The notes under the pieces are model-generated. The model saw only the letters and a program-made list of their open reading frames with translations. It had not been told where the DNA came from and did not search any database. Source: Bacillota bacterium (GTDB taxonomy: Bacteria; Bacillota; JAAYKD01). Taken from it: a DNA stretch of 64,000 nt. Positions 42,553 to 50,773 of the stretch are shown in pieces. A program made the translations under genes and the position numbers. How positions within the stretch are numbered: position 1 is the first letter of the stretch; each line of letters opens with the position of its first letter. The stretch spans positions 768,001 through 832,000 of the forward strand of contig OY762825.2 in assembly GCA_963666425.2 (NCBI GenBank), given 5' to 3'.

Positions 42553-42591
42553 AAAAAAAGCTTACGGTTTAAGTTACCGCAAGCTTTTTTT
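42553..42591. terminator. Intrinsic terminator
   Basis: AAAAAAAGCTT...AAGCTTTTTTT. Confidence 0.65.
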
Positions 42592-42916
42592 GAGTTAAAA
42601 TGTAGAATTCAGACAATTTCTTAGCCTGTTTATAATTCAAAAAATTATCCTTGATCCAATGAATCGGCAGGACAGTTGACTGCTGCTCCATTGTAATGAG
42701 TACCTGCGTCATCTGTTCCAAATGATACGATATGAGTGTGGTAACGCCAATGACCTCTGCCAGATCATGGATTAAAGGTCACTCACGCATGTCTTGAAAG
42801 ATTATTGCACCAATGAAAAAGACTTTTCCGATGAGATTTCTGTTTCGTGATGGCAGGATGCCATCTGATCAGACATGAGCTGAGCAGCCGAAAGATCCGA
42901 AGTTGGCTCGATAAAT

Positions 42917-43702
42917 CTAGATTGATAACAAAGAACGATAAATCTCCTCATCTTCTTGTTTAAACACATTAAATATGACGCGTTCGATTCCGTTCGCTGC
43001 AGCAAGAAAACGTTTCGTCTCTGTAATCGCTATTTTAGTCGCTTTCAAATTTGGAAAACGGTACTCACCCGTTGCAATGCAACAGAATGCTATACTTTTC
43101 AGCTTGTGTGCCTGTACCAACGTAAGACAAGAACGATAACAGCTTGCCAAATCCTCACAAACTGCTTGGGTCAATTGACCGCGGATTCTCGGTCCAACCG
43201 TATGAATAACATATTTACTGGGCAAATTGTATGCTTTCGTCAGTTTTGCTTGCCCAATCGGTTCATCATATCCCTGTGCGATCATCAGGTGATTACACTC
43301 ATCTCGCAGCTGTAATCCAGCCGCTGAATGGATCGCATTGTCAATACAATCATGACAGGGATAAAAACACCCTAAAAGGCTGCTGTTATCCGCGTCCACG
43401 ATCGCATCCACCTTTAAACGCGTGATGTCTCCTTGCCAAATCACAAGCTGTGAATCTGATGTAGTCGGTAAGTGCATCGCATCGACCACGCCTTTTTCTT
43501 CTCGTTCAATCAAAAGCAATTCATCCTGTAAATGCAGGAAATTGGCCTGCAGTGGCCTTGGCGTGCGCACGTTCATCAGAGAACGCAGCAACTTGCGCTG
43601 CAAGACAGCATTCTCAGAAAATTGAACCATTTGATCCTGATATTGCGGCATCTCATCAAGTAATAGCCGGATTAATTCTTTCATTAGTATGAGGCTTTCC
43701 AT
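42917..43702 (-). CDS. Zinc-containing macrodomain protein (ADP-ribosylhydrolase, SirTM-associated type)
   Basis: LRSLMNVR N-terminal extension, WQGDIT, GCFYPCHDCIDNAIH, VIHTVGP, CIATGEYRFP. Confidence 0.88.
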   Translation of the reverse strand: MESLILMKELIRLLLDEMPQYQDQMVQFSENAVLQRKLLRSLMNVRTPRPLQANFLHLQDELLLIEREEKGVVDAMHLPTTSDSQLVIWQGDITRLKVDAIVDADNSSLLGCFYPCHDCIDNAIHSAAGLQLRDECNHLMIAQGYDEPIGQAKLTKAYNLPSKYVIHTVGPRIRGQLTQAVCEDLASCYRSCLTLVQAHKLKSIAFCCIATGEYRFPNLKATKIAITETKRFLAAANGIERVIFNVFKQEDEEIYRSLLSI

Positions 43703-43780
43703 AAAGTATCCCTGCGCAATCCGATTCTTGCTTCCCTCGCAAAAGTTCTCTATCCATCGGCGAAAGTTTTTTTGCCTTGC

Positions 43781-44413
43781 TTAACGAATAAAGTTCGTGT
43801 AAATTGTTGCTTCCTGTGTGGGTAAAGCAATTCCGTTTTTCAAACCTGCTTGCTTGCATTTTAAGAAGAATGCCATATTACGGCCAAGCGTTCTCATAAT
43901 CTGCAGGCCTTCCAAATCCTTTTTTACCTGATCCGGGGTCGAGCCATGAACCATATTCCAATATTGTGATGAAATAACCGGCATTTGCATGATTCCGAAG
44001 TATTTGTTTAGTTGATCATAAGCGGCTGTGCTGCCTGATCTTCTAGCCGAAATTACACATGCCGCTGGTTTCAAATAAAAAGAATGGGTTCCGCTGCATA
44101 AATCTGTATAAAATACCCGATCCAGAAAAGATGTAATTGCTCCTCCCGCAGCAGCGAAATGCACCGGAGAACCGAAAATAAAACCATCGTAATCTTTTGC
44201 TATGCTTAAGAATTCATTCACTCGATCGTCGAATACACAGCGTTTTTTCGTTGCACAAGTTTTGCAAGCGATACAGCCATTGAGCGGCTTATTGCCAATC
44301 CAGAAAATTTCTGCTTCAATTTCCTCTTTGATCAAAGTATCTGCCAGTTCTTTTAAGGCGGTATAGGTACATCCTTCTTGATGGGGACTTCCATTAACCA
44401 AAATGACTTTCAT
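43781..44413 (-). CDS. Iron-sulfur flavodoxin family protein
   Basis: NGSPH..GCT, CIACKTC....C, GSPVHF, SSQYWN. Confidence 0.88.
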   Translation of the reverse strand: MKVILVNGSPHQEGCTYTALKELADTLIKEEIEAEIFWIGNKPLNGCIACKTCATKKRCVFDDRVNEFLSIAKDYDGFIFGSPVHFAAAGGAITSFLDRVFYTDLCSGTHSFYLKPAACVISARRSGSTAAYDQLNKYFGIMQMPVISSQYWNMVHGSTPDQVKKDLEGLQIMRTLGRNMAFFLKCKQAGLKNGIALPTQEATIYTNFIR

Positions 44414-44442
44414 AATCTCTACCTCTTTTTTTCCCTTTATTT

Positions 44443-45315
44443 TTAGCATGATTGCTTTTCTACAGTATTGGCTCTTTTTAGGAGAGTATCAACGATCATT
44501 TGCATATTTTCGTTAAAGGCAATTGTTTTACTCGTGTTTTCCTTTACACCCATCGGATAGTCTCTATTGACCCGAATAAGAACAGACTTGTCAGTTTGAT
44601 AGGTCATCTGCTCAAAAGGATAGCGGATGATACTAGGCGTGTTATAGCCAACACCCAAATCAAGAAAAACAGTTTCACGATCTGCTATTTGACTTAAAAA
44701 TTGTTCGTAACGTTCTTTCGCCTTATACCATTTGGCATCTTGTACAAAAAAAGCATTGTGCCGCACATTGATATCCATTTCGCCGCCACAGACCGGACAC
44801 TTGGGGATTAATTCCAGTGGTATTTTACATTCTTTTGTTTTAGCCAGCATTTGCTTGATCAATTCTTCGTTATCATAAAGCTTATCATGACAACCTACAG
44901 CGCATTGCAGAAAAGCATAATCCCCTTGAACCGCAAAAATTGTCTCCTGCAGGAAACCTGCTTTTATAAACTGCGCTTCTACATTGGTTGTTAGGATAAA
45001 ATAAGCTTTCTTTTGAACCAGCTGCAGCAAATTCTGGTAGAGTTTGGTAGCAGGCTGTGAAAAACGATTGACATCGATATGACGCGCCCAATGTGCCCAG
45101 TGTTCAGCTGGCGTTTGAAACGGATAAAATGTAGCTGCATACATATCTTTTATGCCATATTTCACAATGAAATCAGCGAAATTATCTGTAAAACGTTCAC
45201 CGGAATAGGTCAATCCCGCCGCAGCAGATAAGCCGGCACCCGCACCAATTAAAATGTAATCAGCATTTTGCAATGCTTTTTGAGCGGCTATCAGCCTCTG
45301 TTCATAATCGTACAT
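44443..45315 (-). CDS. Class M sirtuin (SirTM-like, Sir2 family)
   Basis: IGAGAGLS, TTNVE, QG in place of catalytic HG, CxxxC and CPVC Zn site, LGVGYNTP. Confidence 0.85.
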   Translation of the reverse strand: MYDYEQRLIAAQKALQNADYILIGAGAGLSAAAGLTYSGERFTDNFADFIVKYGIKDMYAATFYPFQTPAEHWAHWARHIDVNRFSQPATKLYQNLLQLVQKKAYFILTTNVEAQFIKAGFLQETIFAVQGDYAFLQCAVGCHDKLYDNEELIKQMLAKTKECKIPLELIPKCPVCGGEMDINVRHNAFFVQDAKWYKAKERYEQFLSQIADRETVFLDLGVGYNTPSIIRYPFEQMTYQTDKSVLIRVNRDYPMGVKENTSKTIAFNENMQMIVDTLLKRANTVEKQSC

Positions 45316-45319
45316 CAAT

Positions 45320-45937
45320 TTATTCCTTTACATCGAGTAAACTATCTTCGAATCCACTATAGCGGATTCGATCTTCTTGACGAGGTTTCGCTGCCACTTT
45401 GCTATCACTTAATGAATAACCCAAAATAACATGGGCTATCGCCGCATAATCGGTTGGAATCTCCCAATCGCTCAGCAATTGCTGCCCTTCCTCACAGGAG
45501 AAAGTTTCCTTTGCTCTTGCAATGAAGCAAGAGCCGACATGAAAACTTTGAGCGGCTAACATAATATTCTGTGCCATCATACAGCAATCCGCTTCACTGT
45601 AAAGAAAGTCTTTTGGTCCGAACAGTGTTAGTAATGTCGGTGCGCCATAAAAACCGTCAGTGATAGCCGGATCATCGGCGATGCTGGGCTGATTCTTTGA
45701 AATATACACTGTTGCGGTTGAAATTCGTCCCTTGAACGAAGCGGCGTTATATTTGCCCAGCTTCTTAATGAGGCCAGGGTTTTGACAAACTCCAATTATC
45801 CCAGATTGACGGCTGCCTGCACTGGGGGCATACAATCCAGTTTCAAGGATTTGTTTCAGAATGATATTTTCAATCTGATTGGTTTTGTATTTTCGAATTG
45901 AGCGGCGTTCGATCATATTGGTGATGACTGTATTCAC
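45320..45937 (-). CDS. Nitroreductase family protein
   Basis: RRSIRKY, APSAG, NIMLAA...VGSC, ILGY; GTG start after GAGGAAG. Confidence 0.85.
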   Translation of the reverse strand: MNTVITNMIERRSIRKYKTNQIENIILKQILETGLYAPSAGSRQSGIIGVCQNPGLIKKLGKYNAASFKGRISTATVYISKNQPSIADDPAITDGFYGAPTLLTLFGPKDFLYSEADCCMMAQNIMLAAQSFHVGSCFIARAKETFSCEEGQQLLSDWEIPTDYAAIAHVILGYSLSDSKVAAKPRQEDRIRYSGFEDSLLDVKE

Positions 45938-45950
45938 AATACTCACTTCC

Positions 45951-46110
45951 TCATTTTCGTTTGATTGCCTGCACGGGACAATTTTCATAACAATATCCGC
46001 AATGCAGGGTCAATAATATGGACCTGGGGATTGCTATTTTCATCGACCGTAGCAAAAGACGCTTCGATAATCCGCTTTAAAATCTGCAGGCATTCTCTTG
46101 CTTCCATCAT
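45951..46110 (-). pseudogene. Internally deleted pyridoxamine-oxidase-like/4Fe-4S ferredoxin gene remnant
   Basis: MMEARECLQILKRIIEASFATVDENSNPQVHIID joined out of frame to LHCGYCYENCPVQAIKRK*; ATGA overlap with rSAM stop. Confidence 0.7.
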
Positions 46111-47150
46111 GCGTCCGCTTTGACCTCTTTCCAGCATTGTGGGTCAGGAGCATACATATTGCCTGTATAGCCAAAAGCAACCGCAGGACAGCCACGGCAT
46201 AACTGGAATAACTCACACCTTGAGCATTTTTCGAATTTCTTATAGTCGCGGTAACAATCGAGCTCATGCCCGGTAAACAAATCATACATAGAAGCTTCAA
46301 ACACATTTCCTATTTTACTATTCATTCGACGGCAAGCGAAAACATCTCCAGATGGTAAAATAGTGATGTGATCACTGCCGCAGTGACAGCCATCATAGAT
46401 TGTGTCGCAATCCATCCCTGCTGGTAAATTGAAGATGTTTTTTTCATAAAGGTATAGCGTCCAAAGATGATCTTTCAGTTGAAAGGTAGTGTCACAGTCT
46501 TTGTATTCTGCATATTTAGACCATATTTTGTCAAGAAAAGCTTGATAAGCAAGCGGCTCTATATGGTATTCTTCACTTTTTTGTTCGCTTGTTGGGCAGT
46601 AACGGCCAAAAGTAAATACATCTGCATGATGAGCCACCACTGTGTCAATCAATTCTGGAAATTCGTTGATGTTCTTGCAGGATACCGTGCTCATTATAGC
46701 ACAGTACATACCCGCTTTTTGAATGCAGCTGATTTTTTCGAGTGTAGTATAAAATGAACCTGGTTTGCGGAACAAATCATGTGTTTCGCGCATGCCATCC
46801 AGAGAGAGTTGGTACTTTTTGCAGCCATAATGTACGAGCCAATTGCAAACATCATCATTCAGATGAAATGGATTACCAAGAATACCAAAATCAATGCTCT
46901 GTTTTTTAAGCAACATACATAGCATCCAAAAGTCCTTGTGCAGAATTGGGTCACCACCTGTAATATAAAAATACGGAGTACGCTTCAGCTTTACACACAT
47001 CTCCATACAACTGGCAACAACTTTTTCCATGTCTTCATAAACCACACTTTTGAGACAGATGTTGTTTTTTTCAGAAAAAATATAGCAGTGCTGACAGCGC
47101 TGATCACATTCATCGGTGATATGCCACTGAAAGGCAAAATAGGGATACAA
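46107..47150 (-). CDS. Radical SAM/SPASM peptide maturase (ACGX-system type)
   Basis: CDQRCQHC (CxxxCxxC), TGGDP, SPASM GCHCG..GDVFAC..CSRC.....CRGC...C; TTG start after GGAGG. Confidence 0.9.
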   Translation of the reverse strand: MYPYFAFQWHITDECDQRCQHCYIFSEKNNICLKSVVYEDMEKVVASCMEMCVKLKRTPYFYITGGDPILHKDFWMLCMLLKKQSIDFGILGNPFHLNDDVCNWLVHYGCKKYQLSLDGMRETHDLFRKPGSFYTTLEKISCIQKAGMYCAIMSTVSCKNINEFPELIDTVVAHHADVFTFGRYCPTSEQKSEEYHIEPLAYQAFLDKIWSKYAEYKDCDTTFQLKDHLWTLYLYEKNIFNLPAGMDCDTIYDGCHCGSDHITILPSGDVFACRRMNSKIGNVFEASMYDLFTGHELDCYRDYKKFEKCSRCELFQLCRGCPAVAFGYTGNMYAPDPQCWKEVKADA

Positions 47151-47206
47151 GATAGAACCTCCGATCATTATCTCAACGCTTGAAATCAAGCGATCGATTC
47201 AGGAAT

Positions 47207-47239
47207 TTCTCAACTTCTCAATGATTGGGAAGTTGAGAA
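47207..47239. promoter_or_regulatory. Long stem-loop between precursor and maturase
   Basis: TTCTCAACTTCTCAA-TGA-TTGGGAAGTTGAGAA, no U-tract. Confidence 0.6.
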
Positions 47240-47272
47240 CCTGTGAGCAGCACGATCAATCTAAGTGCTGTC

Positions 47273-47482
47273 CTATTTCTTTTTTGGATCCGCTGCACCA
47301 CAGGCTGATGCCGGCGCTTTCTTTTCCGGGTCCGCTGCACCACAGGCTGATGCCGGCGCTTTCTTTTCCGGGTCCGCTGCACCACAGGCTGATGCCGGCG
47401 CTTTCTTTTCCGGGTCCGCTGCACCACAGGCTGATGCCGGCGCTTTCTTTTCTAAGTCGGAATCAAACAATGCAAATTTCAT
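47273..47482 (-). CDS. RiPP precursor, ACGX-repeat peptide
   Basis: GGAGG RBS; MKFALFDSDL + 4x EKKAPASACGAADP + KKK directly upstream of rSAM. Confidence 0.88.
   Translation of the reverse strand: MKFALFDSDLEKKAPASACGAADPEKKAPASACGAADPEKKAPASACGAADPEKKAPASACGAADPKKK
47285..47452. repeat. Four near-identical 42-bp tandem repeats (coding)
   Basis: TCCGCTGCACCACAGGCTGATGCCGGCGCTTTCTTTTC core repeated 4 times. Confidence 0.95.
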
Positions 47483-47698
47483 ATAATTACCTCCACTGAT
47501 CTGTTTACAAGATTTTTATCTTGCTATCTATAAATATACAGGGACGATGACATTTCCACAAGTATGCACTAATCTATTACATAGTTACTTTTTGTAACCA
47601 ATGAATTGGCTCTTGCGTGCTTTGATGACTTGCTTTATAATAACAGTATGGTAGCCGTTAAAATTTGACATTGCATTCAGTACTAAGGAGATATTAAG

Positions 47699-48028
47699 AT
47701 GCTTACAAAAGAAGAAATGCCAGCTTGCCCGGTGGCAACAACGGTACAATTGATCGGAAGCAAATGGAAACTACTAATAATGCGCAATTTACTAGGTGGA
47801 ATGCAGCGTTTTGGTGAACTGAGAAAAACGATACCCGGTATCAGTTCTAAAGTATTGACAGACAGCCTTCGTTCCATGGAAGCAGATGGCATTGTTAAGC
47901 GTGTTGTCTACGCCGAAGTACCTCCACGCGTAGAATACTCATTAAGCGAGCTTGGCGAGAGCATGCGGCCGATCATCAAGTCAATGGAAGCTTGGGGAGC
48001 AAACTACAAAGATTCGTTTCTTATTTAA
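47699..48028 (+). CDS. HxlR family transcriptional regulator
   Basis: CPVATT..LIG.KWK, RFGEL, YAEVPPRVEYSL; divergent from the peptide operon. Confidence 0.92.
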   Translation: MLTKEEMPACPVATTVQLIGSKWKLLIMRNLLGGMQRFGELRKTIPGISSKVLTDSLRSMEADGIVKRVVYAEVPPRVEYSLSELGESMRPIIKSMEAWGANYKDSFLI

Positions 48029-48427: not shown

Positions 48428-50320
48428 TTAATTTTTGACTAATTCAATTTCTGAAAGCACAACCGAGCCGTCTAGTCCGCTGGTGCCGATCGCGTAAACT
48501 TTCGTTGCACCGGTCTGGTCGATAAAACTAATCGCTCTTGTTGGTAAAACCCCGGGGAAACTCACCCAGACTACCAGAGGGAGATCTTTAGTAAAGTTTG
48601 GTATGAGATAGAGCGCCTTGTTTTCGATGAAACGCAGCGTGTTGGTATCTGCTTCGTTGAAACTGATGTCCAGAAATTTAAAATTCGTCAAGGCAGTGTT
48701 CGCGGTGATCAGGATCCTCTGGGCGTAATCATCCTGAGGCACTCCGAATTCGTTGTAAGATTCGTATTGGCTTAAAAGTTCCTCCGTGGCATAGTCAGCA
48801 AAAACGACGCGATCGGCCTCAAGATATTTTTGATACAATTTCATAGTCGCTGCAGTGTAGGCATTGCCATATTGCTCCAGCATGATCGCCGTACCGTACT
48901 CTTGCGTGATGATTTCTGTATTCGTGACGCAGATATGCCGCCACTCCGCTGCTTCAGAACCATGGTAGAGCAGCAGGTAAGGCTGACCAACGCTGCTTGC
49001 TTCGGTAAGCCATTTCTCGCCAGCAATCTCCTGAACATTCATACCGCCAACCAAAACGCTGTCAACATCACCCGCCGTAAGCAGACGATATTCCAGCCTG
49101 TACAAGTTCAAACTATAGTTCTGTGATGCCGTGCCGGTGTTCATCTGCGTCAGCCCGTTGATTTTGGCTGCCGTAATCGAAACCCCCGGAGCAATTTCAG
49201 ACCACGCCGCACGATCAGACTCAATCTGCTGCCAAACGTATTGTTTTGCATCCGTTCTGACAGCTTCCGGAATGCTGTCATCCACTTCGACTACGATTGC
49301 CGCCGCATCAGCGATCCATGGCAGCGCTTTCTCTTTTGCTCCCGTAAAGGTGCAGTAGACGGCGACAGCGGCGATGACTAAAACGGTGACCAGGGTGTAG
49401 ATGGCCATTTTCGGCTTTTTAGCAATCCGAGTGATCCGCTCCTTGATGCTCTGGGGGCTGCTCGTCATGGTGGTAGCCGTCACTAAAAAAGCTGCGCGTT
49501 TTTTGCAGGTCATATCGATCAGCGTACGACCGTATTCGGCACGGGCAGCTTCGCCGATGCGCTTGATGGTGCCTTCATCACAAGCCAGTTCCGCGTCCTG
49601 GCGCGAAAGCCTTGCCGCCCACCAGACAAATGGGTTATACCAATGCAAAGCAAGACTAATGCCGCGTAAGGCAGCCCAAACATGATCCCCATGATAGAAA
49701 TGGGTCGTCTCATGAGCCACACTATGCCGAAACAGAATCGCGTTTTCAGCGGCTTCGGGTGTAAGATAAATTGCCGGAGCGAAAAGGCCAAACAGACAGG
49801 GCGTCTCAACTACTGCGGTAACATAGATGGGCAGGCGTGCGTCCTGGCTGGGTAAAGGTCGGCGCGTCCTGCGTAAACGAATGGCAAAGCGTCCGTTCGC
49901 AACAGCGAAAACAACAAAAAAGAGTGCCGTACCGCCGAACCAGATCGGTCTCAGCAGTTTGCGTAAGACCAGTAATGTTTCCAGACGCGTATATTCTTCC
50001 GCTGTTCTATTTTTCGCAATGACAGTTGGGAAATTTCGCAGGAGATCCGCCGGGAAATAACCTGCTACGCTGCCATCGGGCTGATGCTCTATTTGTTCTA
50101 CCACACTGATGCTTTCTGCATCCTGCACGACAAGCATCTTTTCCACTGCGTTCATCACGCTCAAGCTGCTGTTCCAGAGGCTGAACGGGACGAGCAGCCG
50201 CAGGAGTACAAGTCCCCAGAGAGCGTATTGCAGCCGCAGACTAATTTTACCTTTTAAAAGAGAGCGCAGCAGGATGATCAGCGCAATCAAAATGCACGAG
50301 GTCAGAATCCATTCAATCAT
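48428..50320 (-). CDS. M56 family metallopeptidase (BlaR1/MecR1-like sensor)
   Basis: YALW..V.LRL, TPCLFG..P.IYL, HETTH, LHWYNP, ELACD. Confidence 0.88.
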   Translation of the reverse strand: MIEWILTSCILIALIILLRSLLKGKISLRLQYALWGLVLLRLLVPFSLWNSSLSVMNAVEKMLVVQDAESISVVEQIEHQPDGSVAGYFPADLLRNFPTVIAKNRTAEEYTRLETLLVLRKLLRPIWFGGTALFFVVFAVANGRFAIRLRRTRRPLPSQDARLPIYVTAVVETPCLFGLFAPAIYLTPEAAENAILFRHSVAHETTHFYHGDHVWAALRGISLALHWYNPFVWWAARLSRQDAELACDEGTIKRIGEAARAEYGRTLIDMTCKKRAAFLVTATTMTSSPQSIKERITRIAKKPKMAIYTLVTVLVIAAVAVYCTFTGAKEKALPWIADAAAIVVEVDDSIPEAVRTDAKQYVWQQIESDRAAWSEIAPGVSITAAKINGLTQMNTGTASQNYSLNLYRLEYRLLTAGDVDSVLVGGMNVQEIAGEKWLTEASSVGQPYLLLYHGSEAAEWRHICVTNTEIITQEYGTAIMLEQYGNAYTAATMKLYQKYLEADRVVFADYATEELLSQYESYNEFGVPQDDYAQRILITANTALTNFKFLDISFNEADTNTLRFIENKALYLIPNFTKDLPLVVWVSFPGVLPTRAISFIDQTGATKVYAIGTSGLDGSVVLSEIELVKN

Positions 50321-50706
50321 CTCTGTTCATCTCCCTCCATTTTTCGTAAAATTGCATACAATTCGTCAATCTCTTCCTGCGGCAGCGCCTGCTTTTTGGT
50401 CAGCGAACTGACCAAAAGGCTAAGGCTGCCCTGATAAACGCGGCCAATAAAATCTTCGGTTTCCTGCCGAACGGCATCCTCTCTACGAATGAGCGGTCGA
50501 AAAGATTTCATACCGCCTTCGCTGCTGCTGAAAACCGCTCCTTTTGTTTCCATGCGGCGCAGCAATGTTAGGGTTGTGCTGCGATTCCACCCCATGCGCT
50601 CCTGCAGCCACTCCGTTGCTTCGCGGCCTGTCCTGGGTGCTTTTTGCCATAGACATTCCATGACACTCCATTCAGCCGATGTCAGGTTTAATTTCTGACT
50701 ACTCAT
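50317..50706 (-). CDS. BlaI/MecI/CopY family repressor
   Basis: AEWSVMECLW, WNRSTTLTLL.RM..KG; overlaps M56 start. Confidence 0.9.
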   Translation of the reverse strand: MSSQKLNLTSAEWSVMECLWQKAPRTGREATEWLQERMGWNRSTTLTLLRRMETKGAVFSSSEGGMKSFRPLIRREDAVRQETEDFIGRVYQGSLSLLVSSLTKKQALPQEEIDELYAILRKMEGDEQR

Positions 50707-50723
50707 CGAATCACACTCCTCAT

Positions 50724-50773
50724 TGTTTACGCCTGTAAACACAGTATAGTCTGCTTGTTTACAATTGTCAACA
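50724..50773. promoter_or_regulatory. Two BlaI-type operators overlapping blaI promoter
   Basis: TGTTTAC-GCCT-GTAAACA (50724-41), TGTTTAC-AATT-GTCAACA (50756-73); minus-strand TTGACA-17-TATACT. Confidence 0.75.

Follow-up and report, generated by a model that had tools for sequence, protein, structure and literature searches.

Described systems related to the locus

A 64,000-nt stretch of a Bacillota genome (assembly GCA_963666425.2, contig OY762825.2, positions 768,001 to 832,000 of the forward strand; hereafter the window) carries a run of minus-strand genes, positions 42917-47482, that joins two small systems known from elsewhere. The run begins with an ACG-repeat precursor peptide and the radical S-adenosylmethionine (SAM)/SPASM enzyme of the ACGX system, continues through the remnant of a PNPOx-ferredoxin gene and a nitroreductase gene, and ends with a class M sirtuin (SirTM), an FMN_red flavoprotein and a zinc-dependent macrodomain (Zn-macrodomain), SirTM and macrodomain being the predicted writer and eraser of protein ADP-ribosylation. 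A gene for an HxlR-type regulator lies divergently on the plus strand, 216 bp from the peptide gene. Neither part is new in itself: ACGX is a family of NCBIfam, and SirTM/Zn-macrodomain pairs without GcvH-L have been described. We read their union, with a probability of about 0.5, as a composite thiol/oxidative-stress operon in which the ADP-ribosylation switch acts on the ACGX module.

The extended SirTM operons of Staphylococcaceae and Lactobacillales (Rack et al. 2015, PMC4518038; Ariza et al. 2024, PMC11490716) encode GcvH-L, LplA2, SirTM and the Zn-macrodomain together with OYE and LLM. GcvH-L is the only known SirTM substrate in the account given by the main text of PMC11490716, whose authors describe other SirTM/Zn-macrodomain targets as elusive, and SirTMs are reported to be absolutely selective for it, the canonical GcvH of S. 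aureus or E. coli being left unmodified (PMC4518038). The window locus has in common with these operons the catalytic Asn/Gln/Arg trio of SirTM, the Cx4HxC loop of the macrodomain, a tight operon with flavin oxidoreductases, a link to oxidative stress, and the pairing of a small, predicted sulfur-bearing carrier-like product with an enzyme that modifies it. It differs from them in lacking GcvH-L and LplA2, the carrier here being the ACG-repeat peptide and its modifier a radical SAM/SPASM enzyme; in its reductases, which are a nitroreductase, FMN_red and a dead PNPOx-ferredoxin; in its HxlR regulator; and in the FMN_red gene that splits writer from eraser.

Lone SirTM/Zn-macrodomain operons are represented by Methanobrevibacter oralis, source of the macrodomain MorMacro (PDB 8RSI), and by Enterococcus faecalis and Treponema pedis (PMC11490716). 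MorMacro, which originates from such a minimal operon, cannot demodify GcvH-L (PMC11490716). The window resembles these lone pairs in having no GcvH-L module and in the close relationship of its macrodomain to MorMacro (E 8.9e-74). Unlike them, its pair is embedded in a seven-gene operon.

The ACGX system (TIGR04340 and TIGR04341) has been defined bioinformatically in NCBIfam, and we found no experimental paper on it. In the window, the radical SAM enzyme scores well over the family cut-off, its gene is immediately preceded by that of the ACG-repeat peptide, and, as in most related loci, HxlR is divergent and a nitroreductase gene follows. Typical ACGX peptides have a leader of the form MSE.L.NVAAF or MALSN... 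and contain a double ACGSACGA unit; the window's peptide has neither and stays under the cut-off of the peptide model. Its operon also differs from the typical one in running on into SirTM, FMN_red and the Zn-macrodomain.

The nearest characterized radical SAM family is SbtM (TIGR04082), which acts on SbtA in a thio(seleno)oxazole pathway for a ribosomally synthesized and post-translationally modified peptide (RiPP; Bandarian laboratory, PMC9204691). It is the second-best family for the window's enzyme, with E 9.4e-47 over the radical SAM/SPASM core. SbtM abstracts a hydrogen from the cysteine beta-carbon, yielding a thio(seleno)oxazole that keeps a reactive sulfur as thiol or thione (PMC9204691), and in both systems the substrate cysteine stands beside a small residue. 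Unlike SbtM, the ACGX enzyme is without the ~200-residue N-terminal part (the match covers profile positions 198-504 of 516), scores far under the SbtM cut-off of 350 and involves no selenocysteine; a related chemistry is what the homology suggests.

Organization of the window locus

The seven elements of the run are separated by 83 bp between the peptide and radical SAM genes, 118 bp between the radical SAM and nitroreductase genes (the dead PNPOx-ferredoxin gene lies here), 1 bp between nitroreductase and SirTM, and 78 bp between FMN_red and the macrodomain, while the SirTM and FMN_red genes overlap by 7 bp. Co-transcription of the operon is likely from this geometry. An earlier note on the same sequence had described the seven-element minus-strand run with its short or overlapping junctions and divergent HxlR gene, and had remarked that neither gcvH-L nor lplA is in the locus; every element lies where it had been placed, and the window's genes and their Pfam matches bear out the absence of both.

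The SirTM gene (44443..45318, minus strand), single-copy in the genome, encodes a predicted NAD-dependent protein ADP-ribosyltransferase. The protein has no Pfam hit; it matches S. pyogenes SirTM (PDB 5A3A) with E 7.3e-57 over residues 14-254 and Fusarium Mfs1 (8RSN) with E 1.3e-27, and ordinary sirtuins only with E 0.0099. Its N112, Q131 and R186 align with the catalytic trio N118/Q137/R192 published for SirTM (PMC8120803) and are invariant in 44 sequences. In place of the catalytic His of sirtuins stands a Gln (QG), and the trio's Asn and Arg are both present. The Zn-macrodomain (42917..43702, minus strand), a predicted protein-ADP-ribose hydrolase, lies on the same strand with one gene between and scores 328.2 bits against NF003163 (cut-off 272). 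Its best PDB match is MorMacro, aligned over residues 9-259 and including the N-terminal part, and its loop C112-FYPC-H117-D-C119 aligns with that of MorMacro and has the Cx4HxC form of the Zn-loop motif of zinc macrodomains (PMC11490716).

The precursor peptide gene (47273..47482, minus strand) encodes 69 residues, a short leader followed by four 14-residue EKKAPASACGAADP units, and has a GGAGG 8 nt upstream of its ATG. Tandem Repeats Finder reports a period of 42, 4.2 copies and 97% matches. The peptide has no Pfam hit and reaches 21.7 bits against TIGR04341, under the cut-off of 28; its four SACGAADP-containing repeats are encoded directly upstream of the radical SAM gene. The radical SAM/SPASM gene (46107..47189, minus strand) scores 540.8 bits against TIGR04340 rSAM_ACGX (cut-off 400), is the sole gene of the genome to pass that cut-off, and carries Radical_SAM (PF04055) and SPASM (PF13186) domains in Pfam. 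Its SAM-cluster motif CxxxCxxC is C28-x3-C32-x2-C35, and the SPASM cysteines C268, C270, C286, C322, C325, C331 and C334 are invariant in our alignment of the family (alignment A1). The true start of this gene is likely the TTG at 47150, which is preceded by GGAGG. Third in the ACGX cassette, and conserved there, is the gene for a nitroreductase-family flavoenzyme (45320..45988, minus strand; PF00881, E 1.2e-19).

The four repeats of the peptide gene (window positions 47276-47452) are 96-100% identical to one another in DNA sequence, a similarity far above that seen between the repeats of most related peptides and one that suggests recent duplication or homogenization.

The regulator gene (47699..48028, plus strand) encodes an HxlR/DUF24-type protein (PF01638, E 4.2e-34) with an N-terminal Cys-Pro motif, Cys10 sitting in ACPV. 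Its nearest NCBIfam model is RrpB, at 123.6 bits and under that model's cut-off of 175. As in YodB and HypR, this N-terminal cysteine presumably serves redox sensing.

Recurrence of the ACGX-SirTM neighborhood

A four-sequence alignment of ACGX radical SAM enzymes led to at least 534 relatives, taken as one genome per species. The best 80 loci were analyzed, with gene presence scored by tblastn with the window's proteins; 57 of them have at least 3 kb downstream of the radical SAM gene, and many others are cut short. SirTM is found anywhere in 47 of the 80 loci, the Zn-macrodomain in 26, nitroreductase in 55 and an HxlR homologue in 64. In 46 of the 80 loci, and in 38 of the 57 with sufficient flank, the SirTM gene follows the radical SAM gene on its strand at a distance of 0.3-2.9 kb. 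Among these 57, the Zn-macrodomain is found downstream in 23 and never without SirTM, an intact PNPOx-ferredoxin in 29 (24 with SirTM, 5 without), and a nitroreductase or a zinc-alcohol-dehydrogenase-type (MDR) reductase in 53. ACG-repeat peptide reading frames are recognizable upstream of the radical SAM gene in 69 of the 80, and 7 of the 11 misses have less than 250 bp of upstream DNA. The clusters that recur across the 80 loci are nitroreductase, MDR, PNPOx-ferredoxin, DUF1848, SirTM, macrodomain and HxlR. No leader peptidase, exporter or immunity gene was found among the window's genes, and no such cluster recurs in the 80 loci.

The gene order varies around a constant core. The commonest arrangement (16 loci) runs peptide, radical SAM, nitroreductase, PNPOx-ferredoxin, macrodomain and SirTM, either directly (11 loci) or with DUF1848 before the macrodomain (5 loci). 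Others are nitroreductase-SirTM (5 loci), MDR-SirTM, nitroreductase-radical SAM-SirTM (Coriobacteriia) and the window's own, making at least five orders in all. Judged by record titles, the joint is present in Lachnospiraceae, Oscillospiraceae, Clostridiaceae, Eubacteriaceae, Coriobacteriia and Bacteroidaceae; many gut anaerobes share it. On the radical SAM tree, loci with adjacent SirTM are dispersed over both main clades, and starred branches force at least 10 changes. On the SirTM tree, the ACGX-linked sequences are distributed over several clades, among SirTMs from other contexts (6 changes, at least 3 of them forced).

Two even samples of genomes give the background frequencies. Among 401 genomes of the window's phylum (phylum sample), an rSAM_ACGX gene scoring over the cut-off is present in 4 and a SirTM-like gene in 19; of the four ACGX genomes, two have SirTM next to the ACGX locus, one has it 68 kb away, and in one it was not found. 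Among 301 genomes of the order around one Ruminococcus-labelled locus (order sample), rSAM_ACGX occurs in 11 and SirTM in 57. When the genome at the center of this sample is set aside, SirTM is present in 9 of 10 ACGX genomes versus 47 of the 290 genomes without ACGX. Five of the ten encode it 1.3-2.0 kb downstream of the radical SAM gene and on the same strand, four have it on a separate contig (in one of these the radical SAM gene is less than 2 kb from a contig end), and in the remaining one it was not found. The earlier note had proposed a survey of this radical SAM subfamily for co-occurrence with SirTM and absence of GcvH-L, and both expectations hold: SirTM follows in 38 of 57 loci and accompanies ACGX in 9 of 10 genomes of the order sample (adjacent in 5), while no GcvH or LplA homologue was found in any of the 80 loci.

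The writer is also seen to part from its eraser. Thirteen of the 38 SirTM-positive loci have no macrodomain within the locus DNA, and in all five genomes of this kind that were searched a Zn-macrodomain over the cut-off is encoded elsewhere. In those five genomes SirTM has separated from the macrodomain and remained with ACGX.

Because it recurs in other genomes, the arrangement is far beyond chance; the association is strong from the ACGX side and a minority context from the SirTM side. It is therefore very improbable that the genes stand together by accident, or as passengers of an island gained by horizontal transfer, and share neither regulation nor function. Such an origin would fit the G+C content of the cluster (0.39-0.45, against 0.47-0.53 in the flanks), the finding that 0 of 9 other genomes of the class have either gene, and the loss of synteny with family relatives at the neighboring NuoE/NuoF-like operon, which is all that these relatives share next to the locus and which leaves the borders of any island undefined. 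It would not fit a joint that is found in dozens of genomes, with several arrangements of the genes and across several clades of both trees, nor the tight junctions of the window and the single terminator after its last gene.

SirTM operons without ACGX

Several observations weigh against a switch dedicated to the ACGX module. The 80 loci are the nearest of the at least 534 and are kin, so the counts from them overstate independence. ACGX stands beside SirTM in only 5 of 56 SirTM genomes of the order sample and 2 of 19 of the phylum sample, and in the order sample the SirTM/Zn-macrodomain pair is about ten times more frequent without ACGX than with it. Ten genomes have an ACGX locus without SirTM, of which five encode SirTM elsewhere and five have none; the latter indicate that ACGX does not need SirTM. 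C-x3-D/E units, a feature that might have marked an acceptor site, are found in the peptides whether or not the locus has SirTM, and do not discriminate. No SirTM-ACGX fusion protein was found, all 20 longer SirTM relatives being Macro-SirTM fusions, which is a weak negative.

The context of SirTM in loci without ACGX points in the same direction. In 20 such loci of the order sample, which are the strongest hits and not a random draw, the Zn-macrodomain is adjacent in every case, and 14 stand under a divergent HxlR of the window's subfamily (55-68% identity, all with Cys-Pro). Their cargo includes PNPOx-ferredoxin in 9, a 265-aa protein in 7 and DUF1848 in 1. The 'lone' SirTM pair of Clostridia is commonly an HxlR-controlled operon with exchangeable cargo, ACGX being one such cargo. 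A description of this HxlR-controlled context was not found in the passages of PMC11490716 that were consulted. Exchangeable cargo is what a portable switch attached to different redox effectors would show, and fusion of operons under one type of regulator would produce it just as well.

The second of these possibilities, co-regulation only, is a serious competitor whose probability we put somewhat short of even. ACGX and SirTM/Zn-macrodomain would be independent members of one HxlR-type stress regulon whose operons have repeatedly fused, and the SirTM target would lie outside ACGX, as a common cellular protein, the PNPOx-ferredoxin, the 265-aa cargo or HxlR itself. That both modules occur alone under HxlR homologues (64 of 80 ACGX loci; 14 of 20 non-ACGX SirTM loci) argues for it and against a dedicated switch. 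So do the approximately fivefold greater frequency of SirTM over ACGX in the order sample (57 versus 11 of 301), the occupation of the same slot by PNPOx-ferredoxin, the 265-aa protein, DUF1848 and an OpuAC-type ABC importer, and the frequent gains and losses of the joint on the radical SAM and SirTM trees. Co-regulation leaves unexplained, however, why SirTM parts from its eraser yet stays in the ACGX operon (13 of 38 loci, with the macrodomain elsewhere in 5 of 5 searched), and why 9 of 10 ACGX genomes have SirTM versus 47 of 290 others, a contrast that shared ancestry could inflate. In the one studied system, moreover, the target is operon-encoded (PMC4518038).

The cargo of these operons includes proteins of some interest in their own right. 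The conserved protein of ~265 aa, which belongs to no Pfam family, lies between HxlR and Macro-SirTM at L125:10292-11089 (minus strand) and is also found at L122, L150, L153, L155, L157, L159, L161 and L162; it is 67% identical between two loci of the phylum sample and may be another piece of cargo or a candidate target for the switch. At L124, L126, L129 and L130, which belong to a single genus of the phylum sample, SirTM is the final gene of an HxlR-controlled operon with no adjacent macrodomain, and the cargo comprises a PNPOx-ferredoxin and an OpuAC-type permease/binding-protein fusion with an ABC ATPase. The importer type is reminiscent of compatible-solute and ergothioneine transporters. 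The DUF1848 protein (PF08902, E 3.5e-95; L080:2368-3297 and at least 12 other loci) lies between PNPOx-ferredoxin and the macrodomain in ACGX-SirTM operons and was seen once in a non-ACGX SirTM operon.

Several SirTM matches of the order sample (e.g., in G503, G451, G513, G625, G402 and G559) carry one in-frame stop inside the match. The two sequences nearest to the window's SirTM (57-59% identity) are among them, each with a single TGA. Pseudogenes, match overhang or recoding could account for these stops.

A proposed switch on the ACGX module

Below, we outline how a switch acting on the ACGX module could work. What the sequences show are the gene families, their catalytic motifs, the geometry of the operon and a synteny that recurs in several clades; the remainder of the outline is inference. 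The operon would stand under an HxlR-type redox-sensing repressor and consist of two joined modules, each of which also exists alone. The first, ACGX, comprises the repeat peptide, the radical SAM/SPASM enzyme and a dedicated flavin reductase. By homology to SbtM, the radical SAM enzyme would oxidize the beta-carbon of the ACG cysteines to form a thio-oxazole or a related oxidized-cysteine heterocycle, and the product may act as an intracellular sulfur-based redox buffer or metal-binding peptide; peptidic thio-oxazoles made by other enzymes are described as binding copper (PMC12668002, PMC12538549). An intracellular role is suggested because there is no protease or exporter, the regulator is of the thiol-stress type, and one or two NAD(P)H/flavin reductases are always at hand. 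The nitroreductase and FMN_red would pass electrons to or from the peptide product, and FMN_red may functionally replace the dead PNPOx-ferredoxin. The second module, SirTM with the Zn-macrodomain, would gate the first through reversible ADP-ribosylation of one of its components, in parallel to lipoyl-GcvH-L in Staphylococcus and Streptococcus.

By analogy, the parts may be mapped one-to-one onto the extended operon described in PMC11490716, with the peptide in the place of GcvH-L, the radical SAM enzyme in that of LplA2, nitroreductase and FMN_red in that of OYE and LLM, and SirTM and Zn-macrodomain corresponding directly. The resemblance of the window's macrodomain to MorMacro, which is unable to demodify GcvH-L, counts in favor of a target other than GcvH-L.

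If the switch does act on the peptide, it would provide the first example of a RiPP under ADP-ribosylation, and the 'lone' SirTM/Zn-macrodomain systems would for the first time have an identified target. No publication was found in the library searched that joins SirTM with radical SAM enzymes, or ACGX with radical SAM enzymes, and the terms 'radical SAM' and 'nitroreductase' are absent from the main texts of PMC11490716 and PMC4518038. The recurrent joint names a concrete, small and easily expressed candidate module for a switch whose targets are mostly unknown. The never-studied ACGX system also gains a physiological frame, in which it looks like an intracellular, HxlR-controlled and reductase-coupled stress peptide rather than an antibiotic. 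For the 'lone' SirTM pairs of gut Clostridia, the survey indicates that they are usually regulator-controlled operons with exchangeable redox cargo, and should the peptide not be the target, it still narrows the search to the HxlR regulon.

Candidate acceptors and GcvH

Within the proposed gating of ACGX, the matured peptide is the likeliest single acceptor, a choice that is itself tentative. The radical SAM enzyme and the reductases, taken together, are less probable still as the site of modification. The most specific version, in which the radical SAM-matured ACG-repeat peptide carries sulfur inside the cell and has ADP-ribose attached by SirTM and taken off by the Zn-macrodomain, is likewise doubtful, at perhaps one chance in a few. 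On such a carrier, ADP-ribose would sit either on the acidic side chain at position +3 relative to the Cys or on the sulfur of the modified Cys; that zinc macrodomains might hydrolyze an S-linked adduct of this kind has been proposed but not proven. The earlier note had placed the acceptor at the Asp of AADP in the peptide, a proposal weakened by the many SirTM pairs that stand apart from ACGX, by the HxlR context common to both modules, by ACGX genomes free of SirTM and by the canonical gcv genes described below. When SirTM (44-row alignment) and the unmodified peptide were modelled as a complex, the score was 0.00 against a mark of 0.32, in a run without controls; this speaks neither for nor against binding, as the real substrate would be radical SAM-modified.

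A different target is conceivable in this genome, namely a lipoylated GcvH-type protein encoded elsewhere, in which case the ACGX neighbors of SirTM would be irrelevant. A canonical gcvT-H-PA-PB-lplA-lpd operon, with its H protein at G000:C1:1118224-1118610, lies ~0.3 Mb from the locus. At G000:C1:2314060-2315187, ~1.5 Mb away, a ~375-aa frame ends in a second GcvH-like domain (PF01597, E 5.5e-30) that has a Lys at the lipoyl-lysine motif position. Two GcvH-family genes and one LplA are thus on offer, and to that extent they count against a target within ACGX. The earlier note had held that a GcvH-L/LplA elsewhere, serving as the SirTM target, would speak against its peptide proposal; the canonical GcvH and LplA are indeed there. 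Published SirTMs spare canonical GcvH (PMC4518038). Both genes are also distant from the locus, and the window's macrodomain is nearest to MorMacro, which cannot demodify GcvH-L (PMC11490716).

Other genomes with both ACGX and SirTM offer little to such a target. Ten of them were searched: a full GcvH match is present in 1, two yield biotin carriers (AMKM, AMKL) over the Pfam cut-off, 1 has sub-threshold hits only and 6 have none, genome completeness not being given. With GcvH in 0 of 80 loci and 1 of 10 genomes, it is not available as a target in most such genomes. Since 9 of the 10 are without a GcvH-family hit, and in view of the distances and selectivities above, modification of a canonical GcvH-type target is improbable.

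The genes around the second GcvH-like domain encode ArsR-type regulators, a methyltransferase and small Cys-rich proteins, and the gcv operon is a long way off.

Further features of the locus

Two elements of the operon are peculiar to the window or decayed in it. The FMN_red gene (43781..44449, minus strand; PF03358, E 2.3e-28) lies between writer and eraser, a position seen only here, and homologues occur anywhere in only 2 of the 80 ACGX loci. It encodes a probable iron-sulfur flavoprotein, with no PDB relative found by sequence. The basis of this assignment is its compact four-Cys motif, C59-x2-C62-x2-C65-x5-C71, which looks like that of iron-sulfur flavoproteins. The PNPOx-[4Fe-4S] ferredoxin fusion survives as two short frames (45951..46137, minus strand), the product of an internal deletion and a frame change. 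Its N-terminal piece corresponds to residues 1-33 (58% identity) and its C-terminal piece to residues 184-200 (71%) of the intact 205-aa PNPOx-Fer4 homologue at L129; with the two frames out of register and only the ends matched, ~150 residues have been deleted.

The divergent intergenic region between the peptide and HxlR genes (47483..47698, 216 bp, defined by gene coordinates) presumably holds the promoter and operator. A consensus promoter scan was at noise level (14 found versus 13.2 expected), a 5-bp inverted repeat in this region, GTTAC-N5-GTAAC, occurs once, as it does in 43 of 100 shuffles and hence no more than by chance, and a search within the operon for a shared operator box gave no convincing repeats. 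The spacer between the peptide and radical SAM genes (47190..47272, minus strand) is structured: an inverted repeat (I5) with 16-nt arms at 47207-47239 is 94% complementary, and positions 47140-47280 fold with -45.5 kcal/mol (z -3.9). It is not a classical terminator, a U-run being absent, and may influence how stable the transcript is or serve attenuation.

Transcription probably ends at an intrinsic terminator-like hairpin with a U-run at ~42553..42595 (minus strand), some 330 bp 3' of the macrodomain gene. Its dG is -22.8 kcal/mol (z -6.0; 0 of 200 shuffles fold as well), and it is the only strong terminator-like hairpin with a U-run in the locus. A terminator scan had missed it, and it was picked out by eye; an Rfam search over it returned only a sub-threshold Thr-leader match. 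The ~330 bp from the macrodomain stop to the terminator (window positions 42596-42916) hold only open reading frames of 50-67 aa, which belong to no Pfam family, and may be decayed coding sequence.

Just past the HxlR gene, window positions 48428-50742 (minus strand) encode a BlaR1-type M56 peptidase/sensor (630 aa) and a BlaI/penicillinase-repressor. This BlaR1/BlaI neighborhood by the NuoE/NuoF-like operon is absent in relatives of the same family.

The window's SirTM groups with those of L052, L069 and the non-ACGX locus L122 behind a starred branch (99*), and an approximately unbiased (AU) test rejects its placement among Lachnospiraceae SirTMs (p 2.4e-6; the group was named after the tree was seen). 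A mosaic origin of the locus was considered and is not claimed, the SirTM group being post hoc and the window's radical SAM enzyme standing on a long basal branch.

Among the relatives of that enzyme, the ACGX radical SAM protein at L008:1495-2526 (the same gene in L128) reads ERDQRCKHC where others have ECDQRC.HC. Arg thus replaces the first Cys of CxxxCxxC, yet this protein is the top TIGR04340 scorer of the phylum sample, at 594.7 bits.

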